Source: Candidatus Bathyarchaeota archaeon (GTDB lineage: Archaea > Thermoproteota > Bathyarchaeia > Bathyarchaeales > Bathycorpusculaceae). Taken from it: 64,000 nucleotides of DNA. Within the stretch, counting starts at the first letter, position 1. Every line of letters begins with the position of its first letter. Below, in pieces: positions 41,101-60,816 of this stretch. The stretch covers positions 672,001 to 736,000 of the forward strand of contig CAWABA010000006.1 of NCBI GenBank assembly GCA_963780185.1, in the 5' to 3' direction. Position numbers and translations under genes: made by a program. The notes under the pieces are model-generated. The model was given only the letters and a program-made list of their open reading frames with translations, made no database searches and had not been told where the DNA came from.

Positions 41101-41411
41101 ATAATCCTCTCCCCTAGAGTGGTTCAGTAAAATAAGTAAATACCTTCATATAGATTTTCCTAGATAAAAGGGTTAAATGCGGTGTTTTATGTAAAAAATC
41201 GGTTTTTTTAAGTTGACAAAGTTACTCTATTGCGTACATTTAGTAAGCTGTTTGAACTGAAGTTGTTGACCCGGCGTTGTTTAAACCGGGGCGATTTTTG
41301 GCAAGTTATCAATATCTGCTTCATGGGGAGTTAGCAATAAAGTTATATCTGCCCCATTCTTCTAGAGGCGGTACCTTTAGGGATTTCAAGCAAAGGATGG
41401 GCGAAGGGGCA

Positions 41412-42872
41412 ATGGCAGACGTAGTTTTAACTGCTGATAGAACTTTAATGAGCAATTATCATAACAACGAATTCTTGGGTTTCGGTACTTGTGCCCCTCC
41501 AAATTTTATTCCAGAATGGCTCTATAGCTACCTATTCTTTCCACCGCTAAAATCAAGCAAAGGCCTCCCGAAGGCGGCTCCTTATGGACTTCGGAAAACC
41601 GAAGCTCAACTTCTCAAAGAAGGCTTCGAAGTGGAAACAGTAAGCCCAAGCAATCTCGGCAGCCACCTGAAAGACGCCAAGGTTCTTGGAATTCACACGA
41701 TGGATCCCTTCGGGTTAGGTCCCGCTTCCTCGACACTTGCCGCGCTATTCAAGAAGGAACCGTACCTAGCAAAACATTTTTCCGCTTTAATGAGAAGCCC
41801 AGCCGTTCAAAAAGCAAAACAAAACGGCTGCAAAATAATTGTCGGCGGACCCGGCGCATGGCAGTTCCATTACCGTGAAAAAGCCGTCAAAGACTTCGGC
41901 ATAGACTGCATCCTTGAAGGCGAAGGAGAAAACGTCGTCGGCAAAATCTTCAAGGCGGCAATCGAAGGGCAAGAAATCCCAAGCCACTACGAAACCGGAG
42001 TCGACGAAACGCCCACTTTAGAGGAGATTCCCGACATTGTTAATCCATCGATTAACGGTTTAGTTGAGATTGGAAGAGGCTGCTGCAGAGGCTGCCAATT
42101 CTGCAACGTCACCCTGAGGCCGCTACGGTGGTACTCCATCGAGAAGATTAACCGTGAACTAAGCGTTAACATGGACGCAGGAAACCAAGGGGTCTGCCTC
42201 CACTCGGAAGACGTTATGCTCTACGGCTCCAAAAACACCACGCCCGACGCGGAAAAACTCGTCGAGCTCCATGAACTAGTAACTAAACGATGCAACGACC
42301 TTAGCTGGAGCCACTGCTCCCTCGCCGCTGTGGCGTCAAATCCTAAGCTTCTCTCAAAGCTGTCCGAGCTTATCTTGCAGAATCAGAATTGGTGGGGTGC
42401 CGAAATAGGCATAGAAACTGGTTCGCCTGAAATAGCCAAGAAAATTATGCCTGCGAAAGCTCATCCTTTCAGCGCTGACAACTGGCATGACGTTGTCGTC
42501 CAAGGCATGGGGGTAGCTCATGACAACATGCTGGTTCCCGCCTGCACCATTATCGTGGGGTTGCCTGACGAGCAGGAATCAGACATCCTTAAAACGATGG
42601 ATTTAATCGATGACCTCAAAGACATGCGCTGCCTCATCGTGCCGCTTTTCTTTGTCCCGCTGGGGCATTTGACAAGCGAAGACTGGTTCACAAGAACTAA
42701 ACTAAACGAGCTTCACAAGAAGCTGCTGATTCAATGCGCTGAACGCGACTTCCGCTGGGTTGACTCCCTGATCGACATATCTTTTTCAGGGAAATGGTAC
42801 CAACACATAACCAAAGAATTCTACAAAGGCTTCTCAGCAATCGCCAAACGCAAAGTACGCCAAATCGAGTAA
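41412..42872 (+). CDS. B12-binding-type radical SAM protein (paralogue 1)
   Basis: APYGLRK, IIVGGPGAWQ, RGCCRGCQFC, GIETGS. Confidence 0.9.
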   Translation: MADVVLTADRTLMSNYHNNEFLGFGTCAPPNFIPEWLYSYLFFPPLKSSKGLPKAAPYGLRKTEAQLLKEGFEVETVSPSNLGSHLKDAKVLGIHTMDPFGLGPASSTLAALFKKEPYLAKHFSALMRSPAVQKAKQNGCKIIVGGPGAWQFHYREKAVKDFGIDCILEGEGENVVGKIFKAAIEGQEIPSHYETGVDETPTLEEIPDIVNPSINGLVEIGRGCCRGCQFCNVTLRPLRWYSIEKINRELSVNMDAGNQGVCLHSEDVMLYGSKNTTPDAEKLVELHELVTKRCNDLSWSHCSLAAVASNPKLLSKLSELILQNQNWWGAEIGIETGSPEIAKKIMPAKAHPFSADNWHDVVVQGMGVAHDNMLVPACTIIVGLPDEQESDILKTMDLIDDLKDMRCLIVPLFFVPLGHLTSEDWFTRTKLNELHKKLLIQCAERDFRWVDSLIDISFSGKWYQHITKEFYKGFSAIAKRKVRQIE

Positions 42873-44640: not shown

Positions 44641-44882
44641 CTTTTTCCAGTTACGCATTTGTGACGTCGCTTTTCTACCTCAGCCTGTCACAGCAAGCGG
44701 TTCACCTCTAAGGGGAATCGGCATGGTGCTTTCGGGTCAGCTGCTTTTTGAAAACAATAATACTAAGATTTCGCTTTTTTTTAAAGGGCTTCTTGTTGAT
44801 TCGCATTATGAATTGAGCATCTATAGCTTCGCTTCATACAGGATATATATTGATTTTGCTATTTGAAATTGAAGGTTTACCT

Positions 44883-45338
44883 ATGGCTGAAAACGCAAGA
44901 ATACTCCTAATAGACGATGACAAAAACATCCGTCAAACATTAGAAATTGTGCTTAAAGAAGAAGGCTACTTTGTTGACACGGCTGAGAACGGAAAAGAAG
45001 CCGTCGAAAAATCTTTTGCCAGCTTCTACAACCTTGCAATCGTAGATTGGCGCTTGCCCGACATCGACGGAACAATACTCATAACCCAGCTTAAAGAAAC
45101 AACCCCGAAAATGGCGAAAATAATGCTCACAGGTTACCCTTCAATGAATAACGCGATAGAAGCAGTGAATCAGCGTGCCGACGCTTTCCTGGTAAAACCA
45201 GTCGACGTTGAAGAACTGCTCAAGAAAATCCATGAACTTCTCTTACTGCAACAGGAAAACAAAGAGTTCTGCGAAACCAAAATAGTTTCATTCATCGAGA
45301 CAAGAACCAAACAGATCCTCCAAGAAGACGGCATGTAA
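44883..45338 (+). CDS. Stand-alone response regulator receiver
   Basis: ILLIDDD, IVDWRLPDIDG, LTG, LVKP. Confidence 0.9.
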   Translation: MAENARILLIDDDKNIRQTLEIVLKEEGYFVDTAENGKEAVEKSFASFYNLAIVDWRLPDIDGTILITQLKETTPKMAKIMLTGYPSMNNAIEAVNQRADAFLVKPVDVEELLKKIHELLLLQQENKEFCETKIVSFIETRTKQILQEDGM

Positions 45339-45861: not shown

Positions 45862-48625
45862 TTGGAAAAAACTACTTCTATGCCCGTTAACGAGGTCTTT
45901 GACGCACTGCAAACGTCAAAGAACGGTTTGACCTCCGAGGAAGCAAAGCTTCGCCTAAAAAAATATGGTTATAACGAGCTCGTGGAAAAAAAGCAAGCCC
46001 CACTCATCTACAAGTTCATTCGCCACTTAAGAGACCTATTCGGAATACTTCTACTCGTCGCAGCAGCCCTCTCATTCCCCACCAACCCCACGCTTGGCTT
46101 AATCATCGTCGCAGTCGTTTTCGTTAACATTTTCGTCGGCATATTCCAAGAATCCCGCGCTGAAAAAGCCATGGCGACCCTGAAAAGTTGGATGCCGCAG
46201 TTCGCAAAAGTAATCCGAGACGGTGAAGTTAAAAAAATTTCTGTAAAAGAAATCGTTCCAGGCGACCTCGTCATTTTAGAAGAAGGCGACCGCGTACCAG
46301 CAGACGCACGACTGATAGAAGCCTTCGAATTATGGACAAATAACGTTCCACTAACAGGTGAATCTGAACCTCAACCGCGAGTCGCGGAAGCCGTAGATGT
46401 CGTTGAGAGCGCTTACTTGTATGCTCCTAACCTTGTTTTCATGAGCACAAGCGTGGCGAAAGGTCAAGGAAAAGCCATTGTTTACTCAACAGGCATGGAT
46501 ACGCAGTTTGGAAAAATCGCACATTTAACTCAGACAATCCATGAAGAAGAAAGCCCGCTGCAGAAAGAAATCGCCTTGACCGCAAAGTACGACTTCACGA
46601 TTGCCGTTGCTGTGGGAGTAGTTTTCTTTGCGTCAAGTTTTCTTTTCCTCCATGCTTCTCTTGCAACCAGCATACTTTTTATGATCGGAGTCATGGTGGC
46701 ATGCGTCCCCGAAGGGCTCCAGGTAACAGTGTCAAGCGCCTTAGCCATCAACGTCCTCAAAATGGTCAAACAAAACGTTCTGGTAAAACGTCTATCTGCA
46801 GTTCAGACTTTGGGCAGCGTCACCGTAATCTGCACAGACAAAACAGGCACGATAACTAAGGGCGAAATGACCGTTAACAAACTTTGGGTTTACGATTTTG
46901 TAATTGACGTTTCGGGAACAGGGTACATGCCCGAAGGCGACTTCACTGTAAACGGTCAGCCGCTGGAGCCAAAGCAAGCGGCACCCATGGAAAAACTAAT
47001 TGAAATCGCTGCCTTATGCAACGGAGCGAAAGTTGACCCGCCTTCTGACAGAAACAGAAACTGGAGCGTCATAGGCGACCCCACAGATGGCGCCTTGCTT
47101 GTGGCAGCTCTTAAATCCAGCGTGAACATCCAGGATGAATCGGCTAAGAAGCCAACGATTGACATCTTGCCCTTCAGTTTTGAACGCAAACGAATGAGCA
47201 CCATTCACTGCTTTGAACGGCGACGTGCTGGTTTACACGAAAGGTGCGCCGAGGAACGTGTTGGATGTCTGCACCAAGGTGCTTGTCGGCGGCAAAATTG
47301 AAGAGTTAAACCATGAAAACATGATGTACATTGAATCCAGCATTCTTGAGTTCGCCAGCCAAGGCTTACGAGTCATCGCGGCAGCTTACAAAAAAATGAA
47401 AAAATCCGAGTACAACAAGGATGAGGCCGAAAGGGACTTAATTTTCGTTGGTTTAGCAGCGATGCGTGATCCGCCGAGGATGGAAGTCAAAGATGCAGTT
47501 TCCAAGGCTAAGCAGGCTGGAGTCAAAACAGTCATAATCACAGGCGACTATGGTCCAACGGCTGAGGCCATCGCCAAAGAGGTTGGAATTGTCGATCGGG
47601 ATTGCTGCCAAGTTATTCGCGGGGTAGATCTTGACGATTTAAGCGATCAAGCCGTCATCGATGAAGTGAAGAAAGGAAACGTAATTTTCGCCCGCGTTTC
47701 ACCGGAGCAAAAACTGAGAATAGTCACGGTTCTCAAGCACAGCGGAGAAATCGTCGCGGTCACAGGCGACGGAGCAAACGACGCCCCCTCACTTAAGGAA
47801 GCTGACATCGGCGTAGCCATGGGCCTTTCAGGCACCGATGTAGCCCGCGAAGCCGCAGACATCGTTCTGCTAGACGACAGCTTCGCCTCCATCGTGAAAG
47901 CCATCGAATCTGGCAGAGCAATCTACGAGAACATCCGCAAATTCATCGTTTACGTCTTCTCACACAACTGGGCTGAACTAATCCCATTCATACTCTACGC
48001 CGTCATAGGCATTCCACTGCCGCTGCTCGTGCCGCAAGTCTTAGCCATCGACCTAGCCATAGACGTCATACCCTCGTTGGCGCTAAGCCGAGAGCCACCT
48101 GAAGCAGGAATAATGGAGGAACCGCCCAGAAGCATAAAAGAACGATTGTTCACACGACGGGTTCTTCTGCGTTCAGTATTCATCGGAGTCATCATCGCCG
48201 CGGGAGCCATGATCGGATGCATTGCAGCTTGGACGCAGGGCGGATGGCACTTAGGAATGCAATTAGCCGCCAACAACCCGGTCTACATTAAAGGCGTAAC
48301 TTTGACTTTCTCAGGCATCGTGGTAGCTCAAGCAGGCAACGTTCTCGCATGCAGAACCAGCAAGCAATCAACCTTCAAAGCAAGTCTCAAAACCAACAAA
48401 TGGATAATCTTCGGCATCATATCGCAAATCAGCATCCTTTCACTGCTTGTTTACCTGCCAATAATGCAGCATATCTTCACGACATCAGCGTTGACTCTTG
48501 GCGACTGGGGGTTTTTGGTGTCGCTGGCTGTGATTGTTGTTTTCGCTGAGGAAATACGGAAGTTCTTCAGCCGAAGATTCAGTAAAACAAGCGCTGAAGC
48601 CCTTAAAATCCATGATCATACTTGA
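45862..48625 (+). CDS. Cation-transporting P-type ATPase (type II); frameshift near 47212
   Basis: LTGES, VPEGL, DKTGT, TGD, GDGANDAP; ORFs 45862-47301 and 47213-48625 are contiguous halves. Confidence 0.93.
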
Positions 48626-48688
48626 AAAGCGTGACTTAAGAATTTGGCTAAAATAAGGGTCAAGATTAGGGAAGAAAAGATGCGGGTT

Positions 48689-48793
48689 TTAATTGAGGGT
48701 TTTGGTCCTGAGTTCTATTCTGATGTTGTACATTACTACCCCGATTGAGGCGAAGATTGCGGCTATTGAGGCTATTTCAATTATTCCAAACAT
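48689..48793 (-). CDS. 34-aa single-TM small protein (not in ORF track)
   Basis: MFGIIEIASIAAIFASIGVVMYNIRIELRTKTLN; GGTGA SD-like site and own TATA box. Confidence 0.6.
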   Translation of the reverse strand: MFGIIEIASIAAIFASIGVVMYNIRIELRTKTLN

Positions 48794-48836
48794 ATTTTCA
48801 CCAATCCATTTTATAATTAGTTACTTGCCCAGCAGG

Positions 48837-48864
48837 ATATAAATATGGTTATGATTTGTTCATA
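48837..48864 (-). promoter_or_regulatory. TATGAACAA-N13-TTATAT promoter element, copy 1
   Basis: Same 9-mer and spacing as copies at 54664 and 56707. Confidence 0.7.
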
Positions 48865-48967
48865 ATTATTTCATAAAACCTAAACATACGTCTAAAAACT
48901 AAGCAGAAAATTTATATGGAATAACAACCATTACTCTTCAACCTAAAAAAAACAGAAGGAAAAAGAA

Positions 48968-49204
48968 ATGAAAGCCTACATACTCCTAAGCACAAAGCCC
49001 GGCACATCTCTGGAAGTTGTCCAAAAACTAAGAGAAAGAGTGAAAGAAACAGTCACCGCAGACGCCATATTTGGCCGATACGACGCTATCGTCATATTGG
49101 AAGCACCAGCGCTCGAAGAAATCAACAAGGTCGTTTACAAAATAATCGAAAAAGACCCCAACGTTATTCGAACAGAGACATCCATCGTGCTCACACCCAT
49201 GTAG
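48968..49204 (+). CDS. Stand-alone Lrp/AsnC ligand-binding (RAM) domain protein
   Basis: 78 aa, AIFGRYDAIV, RTETSIV; no HTH. Confidence 0.88.
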   Translation: MKAYILLSTKPGTSLEVVQKLRERVKETVTADAIFGRYDAIVILEAPALEEINKVVYKIIEKDPNVIRTETSIVLTPM

Positions 49205-49304
49205 CACCGAGATGGAAGCCGGCAAAACCCAATTTTTTCTTTTTTAATATTAAAAACAATGGCTTTTGAGATGAAAATAAATAAAAATTAGCGTTTTGCG
49301 CTGA

Positions 49305-49592
49305 TTATGGCGTTGTTTGATCGTTTTCCTCTAGTAGGCATTTTGGTCCTTTGTGGGCTTTGAGGACAATTGAGCTTACAGTACTTTTTACGCCTTTTAT
49401 TTTCATGATTCTGTTCTTGAGAACGTCTCGGAATTCTTCTATATCGGCGGCGGACACCAAGGTTACGATGTCGAATTCGCCTGTGACTTCGTATAGTTCT
49501 TCAAGATGTTCTAATTGGGCAAGCGCTATTAAGACGCTGTCCATTTCTGGGGATTCCACAAATATGTCTACGAATGCTAGTAGTCTTGGCAT
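49305..49592 (-). CDS. Stand-alone RAM domain protein
   Basis: YEVTGEFDIV, IMKIKGVKST; no HTH. Confidence 0.88.
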   Translation of the reverse strand: MPRLLAFVDIFVESPEMDSVLIALAQLEHLEELYEVTGEFDIVTLVSAADIEEFRDVLKNRIMKIKGVKSTVSSIVLKAHKGPKCLLEENDQTTP

Positions 49593-49770
49593 ATGGGTCT
49601 CTTTCCCATTGAACATGAGTTGCGGATATTTATAGTTTCGCTTGCCATGCAGACACCATATTCATTGTTAACGTGACAATTGCACAGCAATTTCGTTGAA
49701 TACTGGACATGCGTTAAAATAAGCCACCGCCAACATTCTAGCGCCAAGCCACCTCCACGCAACATGCGCG

Positions 49771-50250
49771 TTAACCGTTAACGGTGAAATTGCCGTAGAC
49801 AGAGGGGTAGCCTCTTATCAGTAGCAAGTTAAGTTGCAAAACATCCACGTACGGGTTGCCAAAAACCCAGAAAACGCCCTGTTTGTTCTGATCAACTATG
49901 TTCGTCAAAGCGTCAGCAGAGATGCCTGTTGCGTTGCTTATTGCGGGTATCTGCGAAACTGCGTCTTGGAGCGTTATGTCTGGATCTACACCTGAAGCCG
50001 AAGGGTTCGCGGTTGCGGTTTCGTTTCTTGTGTGGAAGAACATGGGTGAGGTGAAGGTTTGGGCGATTAGGTTTGATCCGACGGTTTGCCCGTTAAGTTT
50101 GGCGGGGCTGCCGTTTGCTTGGTAGGGGAAGAAGGCTTGGCCTATGCCTGTGATTAAGAACGGGTAAGCTATCCCGCATATCAGCAGCGAAACCAGCGCT
50201 AATCCGATGATTGGTTTGAAGTTCCATTTTTCTTTTGTTGTTTCAGTCAT
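49771..50250 (-). CDS. kdpC: K+-transporting ATPase subunit C
   Basis: YPFLITGIGQAFFPYQANGS, SASGVDPDIT, VDVLQLNL. Confidence 0.93.
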   Translation of the reverse strand: MTETTKEKWNFKPIIGLALVSLLICGIAYPFLITGIGQAFFPYQANGSPAKLNGQTVGSNLIAQTFTSPMFFHTRNETATANPSASGVDPDITLQDAVSQIPAISNATGISADALTNIVDQNKQGVFWVFGNPYVDVLQLNLLLIRGYPSVYGNFTVNG

Positions 50251-50262
50251 GACGGTTTTCTC

Positions 50263-52444
50263 CTAAATATGAAAAACTCCGGTAAGAAGCAGGTCGATTA
50301 GTTTGATTCCTATGAATGGCACGATAACTCCGCCCACACCATAAATTAAGGTATTTTTCAGAAAGAGCTCCATTGTGCTGGTAGGTTTGAAGTTGATGCC
50401 GCGCATTGCGAGGGGAATTAGAAGCGGAATAATTATGGCGTTAAAGATGAGAGCTGACAGCACTGCGCTTTGCATGCTGCCTAAACGCAGAATGTTAAGG
50501 CTGCTTAGCTCTGGAAGGGCGGTTGCAAAGATAACTGGCATAATCGCGAAGTATTTTGACACGTCGTTGGCGATGCTGAAAGCTGTTACAGCGCCTCTGG
50601 TCATCAGCAGTTGCTTTCCTAACATGACTACGTCGATTATTTTTGCTGGGTTCGATTCTAAGTCCACCATGTTTGCGGCTTCTTTTGCGGCTTCAGTGCC
50701 CGAGTTCATGGCTAAGCCAACATCTGCGGCAGAAAGTGCTGGCGCATCGTTGGTTCCGTCGCCGATCATGGCAACAATTCTGTTTTCAGCCTGTTCTCTT
50801 TTCGCTATCTTGTATTTGTCTTCAGGTTTAGCCTGTGCAACGTACTCGTCGATTCCCACCTCGGAGGCTATGTTTTTTGCAGTAAGAGGCTGATCCCCGG
50901 TAATCATTACGGGGCGGATTCCCATGACTTTGAGAGCCTGAATCTTGTCCTTAATGCCTACTTTAAGCACGTCTTTGAGTCTGATTATTCCTATAGCCAC
51001 ACCGTTGCGCATGACAGCGATAGGAGTTTCTCCAGCTGCAGAAATCCCTTCGACAATTAGGTCATAATTCTTAGGAACATCAGTAGCCAATTCTTTGATT
51101 GATTCGGGAGCGCCCTTTACAATGTTAATTTCTGATTCAAGCGTGTCAGCTTGGGTTTCTGCCGCTGCTATAGAGGCTTTTCGTCTAATGCGCATTCTCT
51201 CTCTTCCCGACTTATCGCCTTTTGGCAAGGTGAGACCCAAGTGCGCTATTTTTACTCCGCTTGTTCGGGTGACGGCTGAGAACGCCTCCACTTCTGACGT
51301 TGCTAGTGAGTTGAGTTCGTTTGGAACGAACCCTTTTTCGTATGCAAGCCGCAGTATGCTTCGTCCTTCTGGGGTATCGTCATGCCAAGAAGACAAGAAT
51401 GCTGCTTCGCCGACGTCTTCTTCAACGCATCCTTCGAAAGCGATGAATTCTATGGCTTGCCGGTTGCCAACGGTTATGGTGCCTGTCTTATCTAGAAGCA
51501 CCACGTCTGCGTCTCCCGCGGTTTCTATTGCTCTACCTGATTTTGCTACGATTTTGTTCTTGTAAAGTCGGGTTATGCCTGAGAGTCCGATGGCAGGTAG
51601 CAAGGCGCCTATGGTTGTAGGAAGAAGACAAACATATAGTGCGATCAGTACTGACAGGTCTGCGTCCAGACCAAGCGTTATCGACGTTCCCAGCAGTGCA
51701 AGTATGATTATGGTGAATATGGCGGTTAGTCCGATAAGCACCATGGTTATTGCCACTTCGTTTGGAGTCTTTGGCCGCTTGGAGGATTCCACCATCTTGA
51801 TCATTTGATCGATGAAGGTTTCTCCAGGATTAGTTGTAATCTTAGCTGTCAAGGTATCGCTTGCAAGACGTGAGCCGCCGATAAGGGAGTCTCCAGGCGC
51901 CTTCCTAACGGGGGCTGATTCGCCTGTGACGAGTGATTCGTCAACCATTGCGATTCCCTCGATTACGTCTGCGTCTAAGGGAACAACATCACCCGCCTCA
52001 ATGAGGACAAGGTCGTCCTTTTCTAAGTTCAGTCGATTTCACTACCACTATCTTTCGAGTCCATCCCTCAGTAACTATTTTTTTGCTGGATACTTCTGTT
52101 TCCAGTTTCCGCAGGCTTCCAGCCGTGCTTTTTGCCTGTTGCTCTGCAAGCGAATCAGACAGCGTGCTAAACCATACCGTAAGCAGAAGGATGGCGGCGA
52201 CTTCGACGTAGAAGATTTGTAGGCTAGGGTGAGCCACTGGAACGAATATCCGTGGGTCTATAGCCAGTGCGGCCACGATGAAGAAGGTGATTTCTACAAT
52301 CAACATCACTGGGTTCCTAAGTAAAGATTTAGGGCTCAGACGAACTACAGAGTCAACTAGCACTTTCCTGGAGAAAACTGTTCGAGTTCCAGTAGGCGCC
52401 GATTCCTTGACTGGCACTTGTTCTGCGGGTTTTTCAGTAGTCAA
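50263..52444 (-). CDS. kdpB: K+-transporting ATPase subunit B; frameshift near 52020
   Basis: RNPVM, TGESAPV, CLLPTTIG, LDKTGTIT.GNR, DDTPEGRS, GKQLLMTRGA. Confidence 0.95.
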
Positions 52445-54099
52445 AAGCCATTCACCAACCCTTTAAAGAAGGATGCTATCGGTCCAATCGCCAGAAACGG
52501 GAAGAAAGTAAGCACCACGAGTATAATGATGCTGGCAATCAAGACTACCGTGAATATCAAAGTGTCAGTTTTCAGACCCGAGGTTGTGCCGCCGCGTTTT
52601 CTGCCGATCATTGAACCTGAAAGAGCCAACAATATGAATATCGGAGCATAACGTCCGATGAGCATGACTATGGCGGTCGCTATGTTGAAGAACGGCGTGT
52701 TGGCTGAGCCGCCTAAGAAGTCTGAGCCGTTGTTGGCTGCGGCGCTGGTGAATTCCCAGAGGACCTGCGTGTACCCTACAGAGTTTCCACCCACCCCTAT
52801 CGCCGAGACCGCACCCGACGCGTAGGCGACTACGGTGGGAATAAGTATAATCATGGGGTGAATAAGGAAAGCAACCATCACAAGCTTAACGTCGCGGCCT
52901 GTGATTTTCATCCCTAAGTATTCAGGAGTTCTTCCAGACATTAAGCCGACGATGAACACCGTAATTATAATGTACATAACCATGTACATCAGGCCTACGC
53001 CTTTACCGCCGGGGATAGACTGGATAAACATGCCCAAGAACCCAGAAAGTATCGTCAAAGGATGGTTTCCCAGCAGCGCCGAGTTCAGCGAGCCTGTTGT
53101 GGCAACCGTTGTTGTGACGGTGTAAAAGCTGGACATAAATCCGCCGAATCTTACCTCTATGCCTGGCGCCACCAAAGGAAGAGCTGGAATAAATGCTAAC
53201 GCTAAGTTAACTCCAAAGAGAATGTAGGCACCCCAAAGCAATGGTCTGGACTCTGTTTTTTTGCCAATCATCTGGCCAAAAACGAAGATTAACGCTGTGG
53301 GGAGCAGAAGCATCAGGGAAATCATGAGAATGTTGCTGACGGGTGATGGATTCATGAATGGGTAGGCGGCGTTTGCACCATAAAATCCGCCTCCGTTTGT
53401 TCCTATTTGCATGATGGAGTCAAGAGAAGCCACTGGCCCGACAAAGATTGTTTGAGTTGCGCCCTCTACGGTTTTTACGACCGTGTAGCCGTTGAGGGTT
53501 TGGGGCACGCCTAAAGCGAGAAATATTATGGATGCGATGATGGTAAGCGGCAGGAAGATTCGGGTTATGGATCGGGTGAAGTCAACATAGAAGTTGCCCA
53601 TGTCTTTCGCGCCGTCAACCAGCCCTCGTATGAAAGCAATACCCATACATAGGCCTGTTATTGCCGATGTGAACATTAGCCACTGCAAAACGCTTATTTG
53701 GCTCAGGTACGAGAAAGCCGCTTCACCGCTATAGTGCTGCAGATCCGTGTTTGTTGTAAATGAGACTACTTGCATGAAAGCAAGGTCGGGTTTGATGCCT
53801 GTGAACCCCATGGGGTTAAGCGGTAAATTTCCCTGAAAAACCAGCACAAGAAAGCCAACAACCATCATAACGACGTTTAGCAGCAAGCCAGCGATGAAGT
53901 ACTGTTTCCACCCCATCGTCTGCTCAGTGTTTACACCAGTGATTCTGTAAATGAATTTCTCGATGGGACTGAAAATTTTGTCTAGACGACTTGGTTTTCG
54001 CTTAAAGACTGCTGTGAGGTAGGGCGCTATGAGCCAAGCTAAAAGTACTGTTACTCCAAGTATAAGTATGACTGACAGCACTTGAACTGCATCGATCAA
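52441..54099 (-). CDS. kdpA: K+-transporting ATPase subunit A
   Basis: SFTTNTDLQHY, GTNGGGF, TTGS, SAAANNGS, GRTPEYLG. Confidence 0.95.
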   Translation of the reverse strand: MIDAVQVLSVILILGVTVLLAWLIAPYLTAVFKRKPSRLDKIFSPIEKFIYRITGVNTEQTMGWKQYFIAGLLLNVVMMVVGFLVLVFQGNLPLNPMGFTGIKPDLAFMQVVSFTTNTDLQHYSGEAAFSYLSQISVLQWLMFTSAITGLCMGIAFIRGLVDGAKDMGNFYVDFTRSITRIFLPLTIIASIIFLALGVPQTLNGYTVVKTVEGATQTIFVGPVASLDSIMQIGTNGGGFYGANAAYPFMNPSPVSNILMISLMLLLPTALIFVFGQMIGKKTESRPLLWGAYILFGVNLALAFIPALPLVAPGIEVRFGGFMSSFYTVTTTVATTGSLNSALLGNHPLTILSGFLGMFIQSIPGGKGVGLMYMVMYIIITVFIVGLMSGRTPEYLGMKITGRDVKLVMVAFLIHPMIILIPTVVAYASGAVSAIGVGGNSVGYTQVLWEFTSAAANNGSDFLGGSANTPFFNIATAIVMLIGRYAPIFILLALSGSMIGRKRGGTTSGLKTDTLIFTVVLIASIIILVVLTFFPFLAIGPIASFFKGLVNGF

Positions 54100-54152
54100 T
54101 TAATCCGAAACTCCAAATCGCATTTTTGTTCACTATGGCTCCCTATCTCCAA

Positions 54153-54440
54153 CTAAGCAGCTGATGCAATTTTGGTTTTTTCCTGGCACCTTGGTCCTTT
54201 GCAAGGATGCAAGATAACGGTGACTATGGTGCTTTTTACACCTTTAATTTTCATAATTTGCTTCTGGAGAATGTCTCGAAATTCCTCAATCGTTTGAGTG
54301 CAAACTAGAGTTACGATGTCATATTCGCCTGCAACTTCGTAGACTTCTTCAATGTTTTGAAGTTTTGACAAAGCAAATATTACGGAGTCAATTTGCGATG
54401 TGTCAGCGAAAATGTTGACTGAAGCTAAGAAACGGCTCAT
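54153..54440 (-). CDS. Stand-alone RAM domain protein upstream of kdpA
   Basis: YEVAGEYDIV, IMKIKGVKST; paralogue of 49305-49592. Confidence 0.88.
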   Translation of the reverse strand: MSRFLASVNIFADTSQIDSVIFALSKLQNIEEVYEVAGEYDIVTLVCTQTIEEFRDILQKQIMKIKGVKSTIVTVILHPCKGPRCQEKTKIASAA

Positions 54441-54519
54441 TTTACGCCGCCTCCATCAACACAACAGAACACACCAAAACACAATAAAGGTTTAGCATAT
54501 TTATCTAAATCCGAGGAGC

Positions 54520-54615
54520 TTAGCGAACCTCTTTCAGGTCGTTTTCGATTAAGAAGGCTGAAAAATCAACGGCTTCTATTACATTATCCGAGATTTCTGA
54601 TTTGGGATATTGCAT
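54520..54615 (-). CDS. Possible 31-aa leader ORF
   Basis: MQYPKSEISDNVIEAVDFSAFLIENDLKEVR; lies downstream of a motif-bearing promoter. Confidence 0.35.
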   Translation of the reverse strand: MQYPKSEISDNVIEAVDFSAFLIENDLKEVR

Positions 54616-54663
54616 TTAAAGGCCTTCTTTTTCTCCTTTTAACCATAGGGTATGGATGCTGTT

Positions 54664-54691
54664 ATATAAGGTTAATTGTGATTTGTTCATA
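54664..54691 (-). promoter_or_regulatory. TATGAACAA-N13-TTATAT promoter element, copy 2
   Basis: Upstream of RAM-kdpABC. Confidence 0.7.
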
Positions 54692-55050
54692 CTTCTTAAT
54701 AATGAGTGAACATTTTATCAAAATTTTTTGGAAAAGTTAGAAAAAAAGCATTAAAAAAATGAACAGTCTTGAAAATCCGTACTCCGAGCCTCCTGAATAG
54801 ATGAACAAAAACATATTTTTGCAACAAATTATTCGCCGTATTTAACAGAAATCAATCATATATTTCAGCAGTTGTCCAACTTGCCACCGCGATCTTCAAC
54901 AAACCCATTCGACAAGTACCATTTTGACAAATTTCATTCAAAAATGGTTACTATCTTTAGGCAAATTTAAGAAAAAAGGAGTTTATAGCAAGTTGTCAAA
55001 CTTGCAAATTCATTTGAACCTTTTGAAGGTATTGTTTGCTCTTTCAACGT

Positions 55051-56553
55051 CTATGTTCCTTTGCCGCCTGGGAAGGGGAAGATGCCTGATTCTTTGCTTC
55101 TTGAGTTCAGCGCGAAGTAAGCAATTCCAACCGCCATCCAAATCGCTGCTATACCCACTGCAACGAGTGCTGCCCACTGTGTGTCGCCTCCGCCTATGAA
55201 GCCCAGCCATACCACTGCAATCAACATGACCACGTTTGCTGCGAAGCCTGCGATGGGAATTATGTATTTGGTCAGGATAGAGCGGCGTTCCTTAGATAGC
55301 GCGTAGACTGCTATGACGCAAGTTACTCCGTACAGCAGGAAAGTTCCGAAGTTGGATAGCAACGTGATAGCGGTCAAGTTTCTTAGTGAAAGGACACCGA
55401 AGGCACCGATTCCAGCGGAGACAAGAGTCATCACCCATACACCGATTGCGGGTGTGCCGTATCTTGGGTTGAGTTTTCCGAGCGCTTCAGGAACCTCAGT
55501 ATCGCGGCTAATGGCATATGTTACTCTTACACCCGTGTTCATGCATGACAACGTTGTGCCAAGTATCGCCACTGCAACGACCGCTGCTACGACAAGCATT
55601 ATGATGAAGCCGCCACCGCCGAACAAGCCGTTAATCGATTGGATGATCATGTCGCCTATTGGAGAGTTGGAAGCTGCTGCCGCGCCAAACGTGTATTTCG
55701 AGTTGATCCATGCCTGCATTCCGTAGTATTCCAGTAGGTAGCAGAACGCGCCCTGAATGACGAGCGAGAGTATAATTGCTTTTGGAACATCTCGGGGGTT
55801 TTTGGCTTCAGCAGTTAATGCTGTTACAGATTCGAAACCCACTAGGACGAGTATGGCGATTGTAGCTTGAAACAGCATGTGACTTGCACTGCTCGGAATT
55901 ATTACGCTCGCGGGGTTTTTGAAATAAAATGACACATGGTCAGGGTTTATGAAACGGTAAGCCAACGCGACACCTGTCACACCGATAAGCATGCCGATTT
56001 GCGCGATGTTGATCATGAGGTTTGTTTTTGTTGAGCCGTTGATTCCTCTGAAAGCAATGAAGCCGACAAGGACAGCGAAGGCAATGACGATTGCAACTTC
56101 AGTTAGCGGCGAGATTGCGATGCCGACGGTTGATAGTATGTACGTTATGAAGAAGCCCATCATGCCCACCATGACACCTGGATAAACCCAGTAGTAAAGG
56201 TGGGAAAGCCAGCCTACGATGAACTTTGCGTTTCGGGCGGTTTTGTTGCTGCTGCCTCTGTCAAGCAGGGCACGTTGGGCAAAGTAGTATGAGCTGCCTG
56301 CGCCAGCGTCTGGGTAGCGACGGGAGAGCCATGAGTAGGAAGCGGCGGTTAAGAAAGACAGTACCAAAGCTAAGAACAAGCCTGTCCATATGTCGGGAGC
56401 TGTGGAGGCTCCTCCGGGTGCAACTTGGGCTGCCTGCAGTTCGAAGGTGAGCCACAGGAAAGCACCCGGCGCTATGAGCGCCATGGCGTTGATGGTTAAC
56501 CCCATGAGGCTGAGGGTCTTTTTCATTTCAGGTGCGCTGTTTTCAGTTGCCAC
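55051..56553 (-). CDS. APC-family permease
   Basis: 12 TMs, AMALIAPG, YPDAGAGSSY, LVGFES, AEAKNP. Confidence 0.92.
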   Translation of the reverse strand: MATENSAPEMKKTLSLMGLTINAMALIAPGAFLWLTFELQAAQVAPGGASTAPDIWTGLFLALVLSFLTAASYSWLSRRYPDAGAGSSYYFAQRALLDRGSSNKTARNAKFIVGWLSHLYYWVYPGVMVGMMGFFITYILSTVGIAISPLTEVAIVIAFAVLVGFIAFRGINGSTKTNLMINIAQIGMLIGVTGVALAYRFINPDHVSFYFKNPASVIIPSSASHMLFQATIAILVLVGFESVTALTAEAKNPRDVPKAIILSLVIQGAFCYLLEYYGMQAWINSKYTFGAAAASNSPIGDMIIQSINGLFGGGGFIIMLVVAAVVAVAILGTTLSCMNTGVRVTYAISRDTEVPEALGKLNPRYGTPAIGVWVMTLVSAGIGAFGVLSLRNLTAITLLSNFGTFLLYGVTCVIAVYALSKERRSILTKYIIPIAGFAANVVMLIAVVWLGFIGGGDTQWAALVAVGIAAIWMAVGIAYFALNSRSKESGIFPFPGGKGT

Positions 56554-56663
56554 TAGGTTACCCCCATGATTCTTTTCTGGTAGATGCTGTGGGGTTGTCT
56601 TTGAGCGTCAAGAATAACCAATTCTTCAATGTTGCGTTTAGTCCCTTTGGTAACTTTTCTCAA
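56553..56663 (-). CDS. Possible 36-aa ORF translationally coupled to the permease
   Basis: TTG start after GGTG; its TAG overlaps the permease GTG (TAGTG). Confidence 0.45.
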   Translation of the reverse strand: MRKVTKGTKRNIEELVILDAQRQPHSIYQKRIMGVT

Positions 56664-56706
56664 ATGTAACACCAATTCAAGTTTAGCAACTAAACCGTTC
56701 AATCAA

Positions 56707-56744
56707 ATATAAATGTAGTTAATACTTGTTCATAACTCTTATGA
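56707..56744 (-). promoter_or_regulatory. TATGAACAA-N13-TTATAT promoter element, copy 3, with palindrome TTCATAA-N3-TTATGAA
   Basis: Upstream of the APC permease. Confidence 0.7.
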
Positions 56745-56820
56745 AAAACTGAAGAAACATACAGCAAAACAGTAAACTCCTCAACAAATAGAAAACAGAG
56801 CGCAGTTTGAAACAAATCGG

Positions 56821-57735
56821 CTAAAACCGACCTAACACCAAACCTATCGCAAAACTAAGCAACGGCGCAATAACCCAACCCAAAACAATCACAAGAAACG
56901 GCTTAAGCGAAACAAACTTAGATTTATACGATACGCCCGCTCCGAAAACCGCCGCCGAAAGCGCCTGCGTGTTAGACAACGGAATATTCAACAAAGTAGC
57001 CGCCTCCACGAGAACCGTAGAAGTCAAAAGAGTCGCCGTCGCGTTTGGATAACGCATAAGAAAAAGCTCCTCAGAAACCCTGCGAATCTCACCCGCGCTC
57101 AAAAAAAAGGCGCCCACAAAGATTGCGACGACCGCAAAAGCAACCATCGGCCAGTCAAACCCGCCTGTGGCAACTATTAAGCCAAGGGTGTTTGCGCCCA
57201 ACACGTATGAGGTTGAAAGGGCCAAAATTATGAGCAAAATCTTGTAAATCTGCAATCGGCGCCAAAAATTCTTTGGCTTACTCCTGTTGATGAAGCGGAT
57301 AAGGTAAAACGACAGTGCTATGGCGATGAGGGGTGCCGCAACCCACATGAATGCAACCTCGGCAACGTAGACCCCGTTTGTAAAAGTACCTTCGGCAACA
57401 GATAAGCCTGCAAGCATGCCCACGAGAGACATGCTTACTGACATGGGTGCCCTAATCAAGTCGGCGATGACAAAAATCAAGATGGCAACCAGCAAGGCTT
57501 CAGCCCGAAACTGCAGGGCACCGCTTGGCAACAGTACATTAACGGTTTTTGTCATTCCTGCGCCTTGAACCAGAAGCCCGACAGAAAATCCGACGGCGCC
57601 AAGCATCATCCCGAACCGCTTAGTTATGATTCTGGAGCCGACCGCGGGGCCAACGCAAGCGGATAGGTTGTTGCCTGAAACCAGCATTACCGCGATGAAT
57701 GTTAATACAAAGAGTCCTATTGAGAGCCACAGCAT
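56821..57735 (-). CDS. PiT-family inorganic phosphate transporter
   Basis: SGNN and GAN signature repeats, IPLSNTQ, WVIAP. Confidence 0.85.
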   Translation of the reverse strand: MLWLSIGLFVLTFIAVMLVSGNNLSACVGPAVGSRIITKRFGMMLGAVGFSVGLLVQGAGMTKTVNVLLPSGALQFRAEALLVAILIFVIADLIRAPMSVSMSLVGMLAGLSVAEGTFTNGVYVAEVAFMWVAAPLIAIALSFYLIRFINRSKPKNFWRRLQIYKILLIILALSTSYVLGANTLGLIVATGGFDWPMVAFAVVAIFVGAFFLSAGEIRRVSEELFLMRYPNATATLLTSTVLVEAATLLNIPLSNTQALSAAVFGAGVSYKSKFVSLKPFLVIVLGWVIAPLLSFAIGLVLGRF

Positions 57736-57742
57736 CTACGGG

Positions 57743-58414
57743 TCACTTAAGTATTGAAGTAACAACTGCAACAATGAGGTCGGAAAAATCTTCACATGAA
57801 TCAAGAATATCGTCGCATTTATGCAAAAGCTCCTGGTAATGGTGAAACTCCAGATAATGCAGGTTCGGCGTTATGCTGTAAAGCCTGTCGAAACCCAAGT
57901 CCTTGATGTCGTCACCCTTCTCCTCCAGCGTCTCGATTTCTTTTCGGAGTGCCAAAATCTCTGCGATGCTGGATGAGGAAAGCAGCTGTTTAAGCTTTGA
58001 GTGTGATTCCGATGCAAGCGCCAGCATGTTCGAATAGACTGAGTCCCAATCTGCATGGTGCATTTGAAAACCTGAGGCGTAGGCTTTTGACATTCGGGCA
58101 AGTTCTCTGCCGATGTAATAGTAGGTGTCCACGGTGTCGTCAGCCGTCTGGATAGATTCTAGGAGGCTGTCAATAACGTTGGGGCTGATGGCGCCGCCTG
58201 TTACGTCTTCGCTTATTTTAAAGGCAACCTCGTCGGATTTTTTTTCAAGCTGCTGCACGCTATGCAAGGCTTCAATTAATTCTTTTTCCTTGTAGTCTGC
58301 CTTGAACATGCCTGAAACGATTTTGTTGGATTCGACGGCGATGTCAACTATTTGCGACAGTTCGCTGAAAATGTTTTTTTCTCCAAGAACCAGGATGCCT
58401 TTGATGCTCTTCAA
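57743..58414 (-). CDS. DUF47 (PhoU-like) PiT accessory protein
   Basis: LEKKSD and LEEKGD repeats; upstream of PiT. Confidence 0.88.
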   Translation of the reverse strand: MKSIKGILVLGEKNIFSELSQIVDIAVESNKIVSGMFKADYKEKELIEALHSVQQLEKKSDEVAFKISEDVTGGAISPNVIDSLLESIQTADDTVDTYYYIGRELARMSKAYASGFQMHHADWDSVYSNMLALASESHSKLKQLLSSSSIAEILALRKEIETLEEKGDDIKDLGFDRLYSITPNLHYLEFHHYQELLHKCDDILDSCEDFSDLIVAVVTSILK

Positions 58415-58532
58415 CCGAAACGCCTCTCCGGTAAAACAATGAAAGCTAAGTCATATTAAACTTTACAATCTCAGCGAATACGATGTTGAGTAAAAAAGAT
58501 TCTCATATCAGAAAATCAAACGAAGAATAAGA

Positions 58533-59015
58533 CTAAATCACTTTGGTGTATTCTTTCACGGCGTTGAGGGCAACCAGCGTGGTGGTTCTTTTGATGAATC
58601 GTTCGGTTAAGAGCTTCTTTAAGAAAGCGTTAAGGCTCGGGTTGTCTTGAAACTTGGCGAAGACGACCGCGTCGTACTCACCAGTTATGTCATAAACGGA
58701 TTCCACATTGTTTTCTTGGGCTATTTCGGTTTCCACTTCCCGGATATGCCCGCCTTCGATCTGGATCATGATTATCGCTGTGAGAGCGTACCCCATTTTT
58801 GCCCTGTCAACGATGGGTATGTACCCGAGTATTACGCCTTCATGCTCGAGGGCTTCAAGGTGCTTGTGCAGAATGTTTGGAGTCACTCCGACTTTTTGGG
58901 CTAGCTTACGTAGACTTAGACGGGAATCGTCTTCGAGTGCGCGTATAATTTGCATATCGACGGAGTCTAACATGTTTTTTGGGCTTTTTTTGGTTGTTAG
59001 GCCCAAATTTCTCAC
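58533..59015 (-). CDS. Full-length Lrp/AsnC transcriptional regulator
   Basis: LDSVDMQIIRALEDDSR HTH plus RAM domain YDITGEYD. Confidence 0.92.
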   Translation of the reverse strand: MRNLGLTTKKSPKNMLDSVDMQIIRALEDDSRLSLRKLAQKVGVTPNILHKHLEALEHEGVILGYIPIVDRAKMGYALTAIIMIQIEGGHIREVETEIAQENNVESVYDITGEYDAVVFAKFQDNPSLNAFLKKLLTERFIKRTTTLVALNAVKEYTKVI

Positions 59016-59319
59016 GCCCCAAACGGTTACTTGACGTTTGTTTAGTTAATCAAGGAATATATAAACATCACCGCATTAAAATTGAAATAATGTAAACATT
59101 GGTTGGAGAACCCGACTGTCGAAATAGACAATCGATGTATTGACACTTAACGAATGTGCAAGCTCTGAAGCTACCAGAAAACATAGGACAACGCATGATG
59201 GTTGGCAAGGCAATCAATGGCTATAATGCTGCAACATTTGTTTGCGCGCACAGAATAACCTTATAAATCCTACCGTTAAGTAGAGTAGCTCATTCAACCC
59301 CTAGAATCGTTAAAACCTG

Positions 59320-60816
59320 ATGAATCGCATGGAAAACAACAGCATAGATGTAGTCTTAACCTCTGACAGAACCCTAATGAGCAACTACCACAACAACCAA
59401 TTCTTAGGATTCGGCACCTGCGCCCCCTCCAACTTCATTCCAGACGCACTTTACAGCTACCTGTTTTTTCCGCCGATAAAAACCAACCAAGGGTTACCGA
59501 CTGCTGCACCATACGGCTTAAGAAAAATTGAAGCTCAACTGCTAAAAGAAGGCTTCAACGTTCTGACGGTTAGCCCAGAGCACCTTCAGAATTATTTGAA
59601 GGGAGCAAAAGTAATCGGCATCCACACTATGGACCCATTCGGGTTCGGTCCAGCTTCAACTACTCTTGCCGCACTTTTCCAAAAAGAACCCTTCTTAGCA
59701 ACACACTTCCGCAACTTGATTACCAGCCCCATCATCAGGGAAGCAAAACATAACGGAGCAAAAATCATTGTAGGCGGTCCCGGCGCATGGCAATTCCGTT
59801 ACAGACCCCAGCTTGTCGAGAAAAAAATCATCGACTGCGTTGTGGAAGGGGAATCCGAAAACATAATCGGGAAACTCTTTAAATCCGCCTTAGACGGCGA
59901 GCAGCTACCGCCGCTCTTTGAAGTCCCAGCTAAAGACGTCCCCAAGTTAGAAGAGATACCTGACATTGTGAATCCGTCTGTAAACGGCTTAGTTGAGCTT
60001 GGACGGGGCTGCTGCAGAGGATGCGAATTCTGCAACGTTACGCTAAGACCCTTACGCTGGTACCCCCTTGACAAGATAGTTCGGGAGGTGGCGGTTAACG
60101 TGCAAGGCAAACAGAGGGTTATCTGCCTGCATTCTGAAGACGTCATGCTGTACGGTTCACAAAACGCCGTGCCAAACGACGAAAAACTCATCCAACTTCA
60201 TGAAAACGTGATGAGCAAAGTGAACACGGTAAGTTGGAGCCACTGTTCACTCGCCGCCGTAGCGTCAAAACCGCAGCTCGTCGCCAAACTCTCAGAAATC
60301 ATACTTCAGAAGCAAGCTTGGTGGGGAGCCGAAATCGGCCTCGAAACAGGTTCAGCCCAACTTGCAAAAAGAATTATGCCTGCCAAAGCTTTCCCGTTTA
60401 AACCCGAGGAGTGGCCTCAAGTTGCCCGCCAAGGATTCGGCATAATGCATGACCACAAGCTGATTCCCGCAGCAACACTTATCGTTGGTCTTCCCGAAGA
60501 AACAGAAGACGACATCACAAAAACACTCGAGTTGCTGGACGACGTTAAAGATTGCCGAAGCCTAATCGTGCCCCTGTTCTTTGTTCCGCTGGGCAGATTG
60601 AAAAACAAGGATTGGTTCCGTGAAACTCAGGTTAACAAGCTTCACGAGGAACTTATGTTCAAATGCGCTGAACACAGCCTTCGCTGGGTAGACAACCTGA
60701 TTGACATGTCATTCAGGGATAAGGGGTATCGGGCTCCGATCAAACAAGCTTACAAGATTTTCGCAGGATTAATAAAACGTCAAATAAGACGCGTAGAAAC
60801 CACGACTCTGCCGTAG
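59320..60816 (+). CDS. B12-binding-type radical SAM protein (paralogue 2)
   Basis: APYGLRKIEA, RGCCRGCEFC; colinear with 41412-42872. Confidence 0.9.
   Translation: MNRMENNSIDVVLTSDRTLMSNYHNNQFLGFGTCAPSNFIPDALYSYLFFPPIKTNQGLPTAAPYGLRKIEAQLLKEGFNVLTVSPEHLQNYLKGAKVIGIHTMDPFGFGPASTTLAALFQKEPFLATHFRNLITSPIIREAKHNGAKIIVGGPGAWQFRYRPQLVEKKIIDCVVEGESENIIGKLFKSALDGEQLPPLFEVPAKDVPKLEEIPDIVNPSVNGLVELGRGCCRGCEFCNVTLRPLRWYPLDKIVREVAVNVQGKQRVICLHSEDVMLYGSQNAVPNDEKLIQLHENVMSKVNTVSWSHCSLAAVASKPQLVAKLSEIILQKQAWWGAEIGLETGSAQLAKRIMPAKAFPFKPEEWPQVARQGFGIMHDHKLIPAATLIVGLPEETEDDITKTLELLDDVKDCRSLIVPLFFVPLGRLKNKDWFRETQVNKLHEELMFKCAEHSLRWVDNLIDMSFRDKGYRAPIKQAYKIFAGLIKRQIRRVETTTLP

Follow-up and report, generated by a model that had tools for sequence, protein, structure and literature searches.

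The DNA studied here is a stretch of 64,000 nucleotides from a Candidatus Bathyarchaeota archaeon (contig CAWABA010000006.1, positions 672,001 to 736,000), hereafter called the window; it is G000:C6:672001-736000 in our numbering, where G000 is the organism's own assembly of 13 contigs and 2.75 Mb (93% complete). Three promoters in the window carry the same composite element of about 40 nt, in which short half-sites are phased with one another and held at a fixed distance from TATA, and this motif is real, strongly conserved and previously undescribed. Our preferred reading, to which we give a probability of about 0.6, is that a dedicated sequence-specific factor binds the array of half-sites and sets the transcription of a small regulon, the signal being nitrogen and the factor a ribbon-helix-helix protein. 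The original prediction, made from the letters of the window, had proposed a 9-nt box 13 nt upstream of TTATAT at three promoters, belonging to a K+/ion-stress regulon.

On the minus strand of the window, TATGAACAA-N13-TTATAT occurs exactly at 48837-48864, 54664-54691 and 56707-56734, and no further copy was found in the window with up to two mismatches allowed. The chance expectation for the window is 0.05 (standard deviation 0.22), and none of 100 dinucleotide shuffles gave three copies. The box and TATA coordinates and the N13 spacing of the original prediction were accurate for all three copies, as was the palindrome read at the third (Table 1). Genome-wide, the same search returned four exact matches in 2.75 Mb, namely the three of the window and one at C4:67022-67049, which is followed by a ribosome-binding site and a 20-aa small open reading frame (ORF); the box was not seen before many unrelated promoters, a concern raised at the outset. 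Relaxed variants of the motif were rejected, occurring in the own genome at background level (9 and 7 matches, where the reversed genome gave 9 and 3). Because exact copies are few and relaxed patterns sit at the level of the reversed genome, the box is rare and specific and is no general promoter feature. Scanning the own genome with a 41-position matrix gave five matches at 40-57 bits, with none above 18 bits in the reversed control. The fifth of these lies at G000:C9:110747-110787 (40 bits), where the ORF downstream lacks the conserved 41-aa membrane-peptide sequence of relatives.

The exact 17-mer palindrome occurs twice in the own genome, once within module 3 and once ahead of glnA at a distance of about 120 nt, and is absent from the reversed genome and from three shuffles; at glnA, a TATA-like TTTATTT follows at almost the canonical distance. 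Two further palindrome searches were set aside: with two mismatches allowed, the 31 own-genome matches against 13-21 in controls were uninformative, and outside the family the exact palindrome occurred at the control rate, with no module in the four loci fetched (L098-L101).

For conservation in relatives, 61 related genomes were searched with up to one mismatch alongside a backwards-read control, 60 loci were fetched and 104 sites were aligned. Of the 36 genomes that share the genus, 29 had box matches, frequently clustered and more than one to a genome, whereas the backwards control gave almost none. The aligned sites yield the consensus ttTTCATAAaaaT-TATGAACAA-ATCWYAActa-nn-TTTATAT, which corresponds to a module of about 40 nt, TTCATAA-N3-TTATGAA-CAA-ATCWYAA-N6-TTTATAT. 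The half-sites TTCATAA, TTATGAA and ATCWYAA lie 10 bp apart with centres near -8, +2 and +12, the last ending 6 nt before TATA, and a weaker T..A (TnnA) element lies one turn further upstream at -19/-16. In membrane-peptide promoters, the left half-site is direct rather than inverted. The proposed box has held up as a conserved cis-element at a fixed distance from TATA, but as an element of about 40 nt with phased half-sites and not as a 9-mer. Every module has TTTATAT or CTTATAT at +21 to +27, and in the named gene classes TATA is followed after 38-59 nt by the first start codon, itself preceded by a GGTG- or GGAG-type site. When the spacer was varied from N8 to N18 over the 61 genomes, 65 of the 72 exact matches had N13, and the seven at other spacings lacked the conserved spacer signature. 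Conservation upstream of kdp, suggested beforehand as a check, was found: the module precedes RAM-kdpABC-RAM and APC-permease operons of relatives, with an orthologous module before kdp in nine genomes.

Several positions that the search left unconstrained are near-invariant in the alignment (T+10, 0.99; C+11, 0.84; A+14, 0.99; A+15, 0.98; T-11/-10, 0.90-0.92; A-6, 0.92), while +19/+20, -4 and -2 vary freely. Because unconstrained positions are near-invariant while others vary, the pattern indicates selection on contacts, not recent duplication.

Fetched loci were chosen for holding a site, and the counts that follow are of sites and not of genes; ORFs were called and clustered, and representatives were annotated. 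The loci of 37 genomes hold 123 signature-bearing sites. The largest class precedes a 32-aa membrane peptide (24 sites, 15 genomes), followed by a leader plus APC permease (17 sites), an ammonium transporter, Amt (13), a CitMHS-type transporter operon (11, continuing either with a small membrane protein and a second Amt or with TrkH and an MscS-like gene), a 20-aa peptide ending in YFPHV (11), the RAM-kdpABC-RAM operon (9; three by an automatic rule and six with KdpA 565-654 nt downstream), glutamine synthetase (3, once followed by asparagine synthase) and asparagine synthase, AsnB (1-2). The remaining sites stand before other small membrane peptides or unclassified ORFs. Family scores were 366 bits for Amt (TIGR00836), 574 bits for GlnA (TIGR00653) and 860 bits for AsnB (NF006949).

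Because the module precedes Amt, glutamine synthetase, AsnB and APC permeases, and the palindrome lies upstream of the organism's own glnA, we infer that the regulon serves nitrogen supply, with high-affinity K+ uptake as a conserved passenger; such a gene set resembles that of a regulon for nitrogen limitation. The earlier proposal of an undescribed regulon that links kdp with an APC permease holds, but the gene content is centred on nitrogen and not on K+ or ion stress. In the own genome, the regulon probably comprises six promoters, those of glnA, the leader and APC permease, the leader-RAM-kdpABC-RAM operon, the 34-aa peptide, the 20-aa peptide on C4 and a decayed membrane-peptide gene on C9. 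NrpR (PF01995) had no match in this 93% complete genome, while the controls M. jannaschii and M. acetivorans matched, and PII gave a weak match only, interrupted by a stop codon. Glutamine synthetase paralogues stand in tandem at G000:C6:300402-303498 (L103), 82% and 38% identical to the module-driven glutamine synthetase of relatives; only the first has the palindrome upstream.

The candidate regulator is encoded at G000:C7:93534-94097, on another contig than the window, and is a putative one-component regulator of 188 aa (about 185 aa in relatives) with an N-terminal ribbon-helix-helix (RHH_1, PF01402, 27.9 bits against a cut-off of 20.5). At least 805 relatives are found in metagenomes, unnamed or called Arc/MetJ-type regulators, and two beta-strand residues, R9 and T11, do not vary among 25 sequences. 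By a criterion set after the data had been seen, in which a site is credible if its spacer reads [AGT]T[CA]N[CT]AA, credible sites are present in 26 of the 27 genomes with the gene among the 61 (the exception is 65% complete) and in 3 of the 34 without it (66%, 92% and 95% complete). In a second set of 121 genomes from 70 genera of the family, the gene was found in 17 genomes of 11 genera, with a signature-bearing site in 14, a variant in two and none in one, against no signature-bearing site and one variant in the 104 genomes without the gene; the counts of both sets ignore kinship among genomes, which overstates their significance. The gene and the site are also neighbours. A strong site (20-43 bits, where the 99th percentile of the background is -0.6 bits) follows the gene within 260 nt in 13 of 17 loci and stands divergently on its upstream side in one more, and the same adjacency was found by coordinates in 11 genomes of the 121-genome set. 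The only genome outside the family that has the gene (G047) carries a site about 80 bp downstream of it, and in other genera the order runs Lrp, ribbon-helix-helix gene, site-Amt, site-CitMHS. Because phyletic pattern and adjacency fit it far better than they fit the Lrp regulator of the window, we consider the ribbon-helix-helix protein to be the probable factor for the module.

In an AlphaFold model of the candidate (predicted local distance difference test score, 70.5), the C-terminal part forms an alpha/beta domain predicted with confidence. The N-terminus aligns to the ribbon-helix-helix of PutA on DNA (Z 6.6) and to Arc, NikR and CopA, with Z of 5.4-6.6 and root-mean-square deviations (rmsd) of 1.6-3.2 overall. 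For the C-terminal domain, the matches were H-NOX (Z 8.7/8.3), Bet3 (Z 8.0), the phenol-sensor domains of DmpR and PoxR (Z 7.5) and the V4R protein MJ1460 (Z 6.4), a coherent set of modest scores that would make the domain V4R/H-NOX-like. A relationship between HNOB and V4R domains is described in PMC5847659. Pfam gave no match to PF02830 or PF07700 in the candidate, no Pfam or NCBIfam family covers the C-terminal domain, and an ESM Atlas search with this domain returned nothing above 0.9.

Beyond the two limits placed on the co-occurrence counts, several observations weigh against our reading. Three genomes have credible sites and no detected gene (G005, G022 and G028), and G189 has the gene and no site match. 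No site adjoins the organism's own ribbon-helix-helix gene, which is on a separate contig, and matrix and palindrome searches of the own genome placed no module at either of its two amt genes. For the C-terminal domain, the fold matches were of middling quality (98-130 residues, rmsd 3.5-5.0 A), and Foldseek against the PDB returned weak matches, with E about 1e-3, to designed proteins only. The nitrogen label is one of gene content: some 40% of the sites stand before tiny proteins without assigned function, and K+ genes (kdp, TrkH) and MscS are also members of the regulon, as an osmotic or potassium glutamate alternative would have it. A search of sequencing runs found no RNA run with this DNA and two DNA runs with a small word share.

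That alternative survives best of those weighed here, and we consider it unlikely. It holds that the regulon answers K+ or osmotic state and builds a pool of potassium glutamate or compatible solutes by means of Kdp, TrkH, a mechanosensitive channel, Glu/Gln synthesis and amino-acid uptake. It can draw on the module at the kdp operons of nine genomes and on TrkH and the MscS-like gene in the CitMHS operon of some genomes. It can also draw on the module being the only visible control of kdp, because KdpD, KdpE and KdpF were not found; KdpF (PF09604) and KdpD (PF02702) had no match in the own genome, and the original prediction had already remarked that no kdpD-, kdpE- or kdpF-type control is visible. 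However, Amt (its 13 sites plus the second Amt of CitMHS operons), glutamine synthetase, AsnB and APC permeases outnumber the K+ genes, seven mapped genomes of the amt type (G005, G007, G008, G011, G014, G015 and G030) showed no module-preceded kdp, and the exact palindrome stands at the organism's own glnA.

Somewhat less likely still is that an Lrp/AsnC protein binds the palindrome, either the one encoded in the window, which the original prediction had put forward as regulator, or an amt-linked paralogue of group B elsewhere, with RAM-only proteins tuning it through mixed oligomers. Mixed oligomers of this kind have reportedly been described for FL11 and DM1 of Pyrococcus. Three RAM-only genes belong to the regulon, and the core CATAA-WWW-TTATG is laid out like 13-bp sites of the Lrp/FFRP scheme. 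Full-length Lrp genes head the cluster in 10 genomes of the kdp/APC type, and in at least 11 more, some from other genera, the first Amt site is immediately preceded by an Lrp gene. In most genomes a full-length Lrp gene is a neighbour of the regulon's main operon, which speaks for Lrp and counts against our reading. Lrp-type control of nitrogen is documented in other archaea, where Sa-Lrp is reported to be glutamine-responsive (PMC3584215), and Lrp has been studied in Haloferax (PMC8229911). The distribution of the genes nevertheless fits poorly. Although the window Lrp (group A) is syntenic in 10 genomes, its orthologues (70-82% identity) are found in only 11 of the 61 genomes, whereas the motif is credible in 29; group B, which is amt-linked, is 37-44% identical, has another recognition helix and occurs in about 11 other genomes; and group C is ubiquitous, with or without the motif, so that no group matches the motif distribution. 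Some genomes, G001, G004, G010, G024, G027 and G035 among them, have credible sites yet only the ubiquitous Lrp, and nothing resembling the module was found upstream of the window Lrp. The window Lrp is possibly a co-regulator and is not the best candidate for the box.

The remaining alternative, that there is no dedicated factor and the module is a duplicated strong promoter cassette or an extended B recognition element (BRE) for an alternative TFB, is very improbable: a CAAATCWYAAC stretch does abut TATA at the BRE location and the TATA is near consensus, but only specific positions are invariant over more than 100 promoters of unrelated genes in several genera with unrelated flanks, a 17-bp palindrome with 10-bp phasing is typical of dimeric factors, and module presence tracks one regulator gene. 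The one protein considered as TFB-like, a small protein (cluster c23) of the histidine-kinase/receiver neighbourhood, found near the peptide genes in four relatives, was rejected, with nothing TFB-like seen by eye and no family scan made.

If a ribbon-helix-helix factor does control the module, the element would be a composite operator-promoter, with an array spanning about -65 to -35 from the transcription start and abutting or overlapping the BRE. Dimers of ribbon-helix-helix proteins typically occupy repeats one helical turn apart, and dimers of the candidate could occupy the phased half-sites in this manner. The bound factor would govern how TFB and TBP are recruited to the BRE and TATA next to it, and its C-terminal domain could sense a small metabolite that reports nitrogen supply. 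Lrp and the RAM-only proteins might form further layers, by amino-acid sensing, by control at a GAC-N4-GTY element upstream of the membrane-peptide promoters, or by post-translational control of Kdp. As to direction, we lean slightly to activation because the TATA spacing is rigid and the stretch just upstream of TATA is not purine-rich; against this stand the near-consensus TATA and the predominance of repressors among characterised ribbon-helix-helix proteins. Repression may, by analogy, resemble that by NrpR, with de-repression under limitation.

A wider reading is offered tentatively. The ribbon-helix-helix plus V4R/H-NOX-like family might be the master nitrogen regulator of a Bathyarchaeia family that has neither NrpR nor a normal PII, joining glutamine synthetase, Amt, AsnB, permeases, KdpABC and micro-proteins. 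It is conceivable, at a similarly low level of confidence, that RAM-only proteins there replace KdpDE and KdpF, and equally tentative that the micro-protein set consists of the 20-aa ...YFPHV peptide, the 32-aa membrane peptides and the 35-aa permease-coupled peptide. In the boldest form of this reading, nitrogen-controlled Kdp would be an ATP-driven scavenger of both NH4+ and K+, which would fit lineages tending to have either a kdp or an amt operon behind the module.

The features of the window around the three modules are collected in Table 1.

Table 1. Modules and genes around them in the window (positions counted from the first letter of the window).
Feature	Position	Strand	Remarks
Module 1	48837-48876	-	box 48856-48864, TATA (TTTATAT) 48837-48843; matrix 43.9 bits; drives the 34-aa membrane peptide
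Module 2	54664-54703	-	matrix 46.0 bits; weak left half-site; drives leader-RAM-kdpABC-RAM
Module 3	56707-56746	-	matrix 54.8 bits; perfect 17-bp palindrome TTCATAA-GAG-TTATGAA at 56729-56745
GAC-N4-GTY element	48883-48892	-	palindromic, (TTTA)GAC-N4-GTY; upstream of the membrane-peptide promoter
34-aa single-helix membrane peptide (TM32 family)	48689-48793	-	GGTGA ribosome-binding site; ATG 43 nt after TATA
78-aa stand-alone RAM-domain protein	48968-49204	+	PF01037, 36.9 bits; divergent from module 1
RAM-only protein, 3' end of kdp operon	49305-49616	-	PF01037, 60.2 bits; 56% identical to the 5' RAM protein
kdpC	49771-50250	-	PF02669, 130.9 bits
kdpB	50263-52444	-	split into two frames by one frameshift at an A/G run near 52020
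kdpA	52441-54099	-	TIGR00680, 489 bits
RAM-only protein, first long gene of kdp operon	54153-54440	-	relatives of demi-FFRP chains 2djw, 2zbc, 2cvi, 2e1a
31-aa leader ORF, kdp operon	54520-54615	-	little conserved apart from an initial MQ[Y/H] and an ..AF.. stretch close to the C-terminus
APC-family amino-acid permease	55051-56553	-	PF13520, 90.8 bits; below all NCBIfam equivalog cut-offs
36-aa conserved small ORF	56553-56663	-	..RNIEEL..QPHSI[FY]QKRI..
Lrp/AsnC regulator, full-length, group A	58533-59015	-	HTH_24/AsnC and PF01037; syntenic with the cluster

At module 1, the upstream half-site is TTATGAA, in direct orientation as in the membrane-peptide promoters of relatives. The GAC-N4-GTY element beyond it was found upstream of 15 of the 24 membrane-peptide promoters against 1 of 80 others, at a constant 27 nt upstream of the box (28 nt in the window), and may be the site of a second factor. 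The 78-aa RAM gene that diverges from this module is kept beside the membrane-peptide gene in relatives. In the kdp operon, the RAM-only protein at the 3' end probably starts at its second Met. The kdpB reading frame is divided into frames of 148 and 561 aa by a single indel, and the rest shares 81-87% identity with an unbroken orthologue of 728 aa. Orthologues are uninterrupted, at lengths of 725-760 aa, and the frameshift may reflect either an error of sequencing or a lesion of very recent date. A second P-type ATPase, at 45862-48625 (+), is also split, into overlapping frames of 479 and 470 aa, and the occurrence of two such genes suggests homopolymer errors of the assembly or parallel decay. 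Upstream of the unit driven by module 3 lie PiT, a PhoU_div protein and the full-length Lrp.

All three small ORFs exist as first proposed, and Pfam holds no family for any of them. Third-position excess in the codon-position pattern (0.28/0.21/0.44 for the membrane peptide and 0.17/0.12/0.27 for the 20-aa peptide) indicates that both are probably coding. The stop codon of the 36-aa ORF overlaps the GTG start of the permease (TAGTG, 56551-56555), which suggests translational coupling. This permease leader may also be a protein in its own right because it is conserved at the protein level and two relatives, G016 (L022) and G019 (L043), hold an extra copy with a module and no permease downstream; the extra copy faces a second APC permease, which has its own, different leader. 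The gene for the 20-aa ...YFPHV peptide (G000:C4:66540-67130, L107) is divergent from one for a small Cys/His-rich, zinc-finger-like protein, a pairing kept in at least seven relatives. Complex prediction for KdpA with the 34-aa peptide, in a KdpF-like role, scored 0.00, which carries no weight either way.

Other elements of the region were also recorded. A direct repeat, GTTGTCMAACTTGC, stands at 54871-54884 and 54992-55005 (+), its copies separated by 121 nt, within the 360 nt that divide the permease from the kdp promoter. As a wider element, TTGTCMAACTT was rejected as a local repeat (8 genome matches, with 5 in the control); the own amt genes have a similar word upstream. An Rfam scan of 48000-59500 with E up to 1 found no RNA family and hence no known riboswitch or leader. 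Near the peptide locus, a receiver-only response regulator is encoded at 44850-45338 (+); in relatives (L040, L043, L022 and L048) its neighbours include a small conserved protein and, in some, a PAS histidine kinase, and it may provide the region with a further input. The whole region is flanked by two radical-SAM-like paralogues (cluster c18), at 41277-42872 and 59320-60816 (+).

Bathyarchaeia are abundant, mostly uncultured archaea of sediment and soil, and to our knowledge their gene regulation is essentially uncharted. Full-text literature searches found no nitrogen regulator and no ribbon-helix-helix/V4R regulator described for them. The analysis yields an operator of about 40 nt with more than 100 natural variants, a defined regulon and a single strong candidate regulator. 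If our reading is true, it would show how nitrogen control is organised in archaea without NrpR, it would tie K+ uptake to nitrogen status through a shared operator, and several conserved micro-proteins would join the short list of nitrogen-linked small proteins of Methanosarcina. Nitrogen-regulated small proteins reported from methanogens include sP26 with glutamine synthetase (bioRxiv 10.1101/2020.05.06.080432), sP36 with AmtB (PMC10714827) and those of a Ribo-seq survey (PMC11456600). The module itself could serve archaeal genetics as a regulated promoter part.

Set against known systems, the regulon is like that of NrpR in Methanococcus and Methanosarcina in placing glnA and amt under what would be one sequence-specific factor, with a nitrogen response that is here read from gene content; it differs in the absence of a PF01995 match from the own genome, in the inclusion of kdp and in that no nif or glnK was seen. 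The NrpR operator, GGAA-N6-TTCC, lies at or after the start site and is unrelated to the module in sequence and position. With NikR, Arc, MetJ and CopG, the candidate shares the ribbon-helix-helix domain, joined, much as in NikR, to a sensor-like domain, and short repeats one helical turn apart; its C-terminal domain appears, at modest Z, V4R/H-NOX-like and not ACT-like, and the module differs from the operators of these systems in its nitrogen and K+ targets and its rigid distance upstream of an archaeal BRE/TATA. The E. coli NikR operator, GTATGA-N16-TCATAC, shares the half-site TATGA/TCATA with the module, maybe by coincidence. Like the sites of Ptr2, Sa-Lrp and the haloarchaeal Lrp at glnA, the module lies just upstream of BRE/TATA and is an A/T-centred palindrome with linked Lrp and RAM-only genes, whereas the distribution of Lrp orthologues here does not match the motif; the best NCBIfam match of the window Lrp is haloarchaeal Lrp, at 121.7 bits below a cut-off of 190. 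Compared with KdpFABC/KdpDE and kdpFABCQ of Halobacterium, KdpA, KdpB and KdpC come in the usual order, but KdpD and KdpF were not found and the operon lies between two paralogous RAM-only genes with a leader ORF and the module ahead, a RAM-bracketed arrangement conserved in the genus. In E. coli, nitrogen and K+ are linked by PtsN acting on KdpD, with no shared operator. A member of none of these systems as they are defined, the regulon is closest to NrpR by function, to NikR-type regulators by architecture and to Ptr2-type activators by position.

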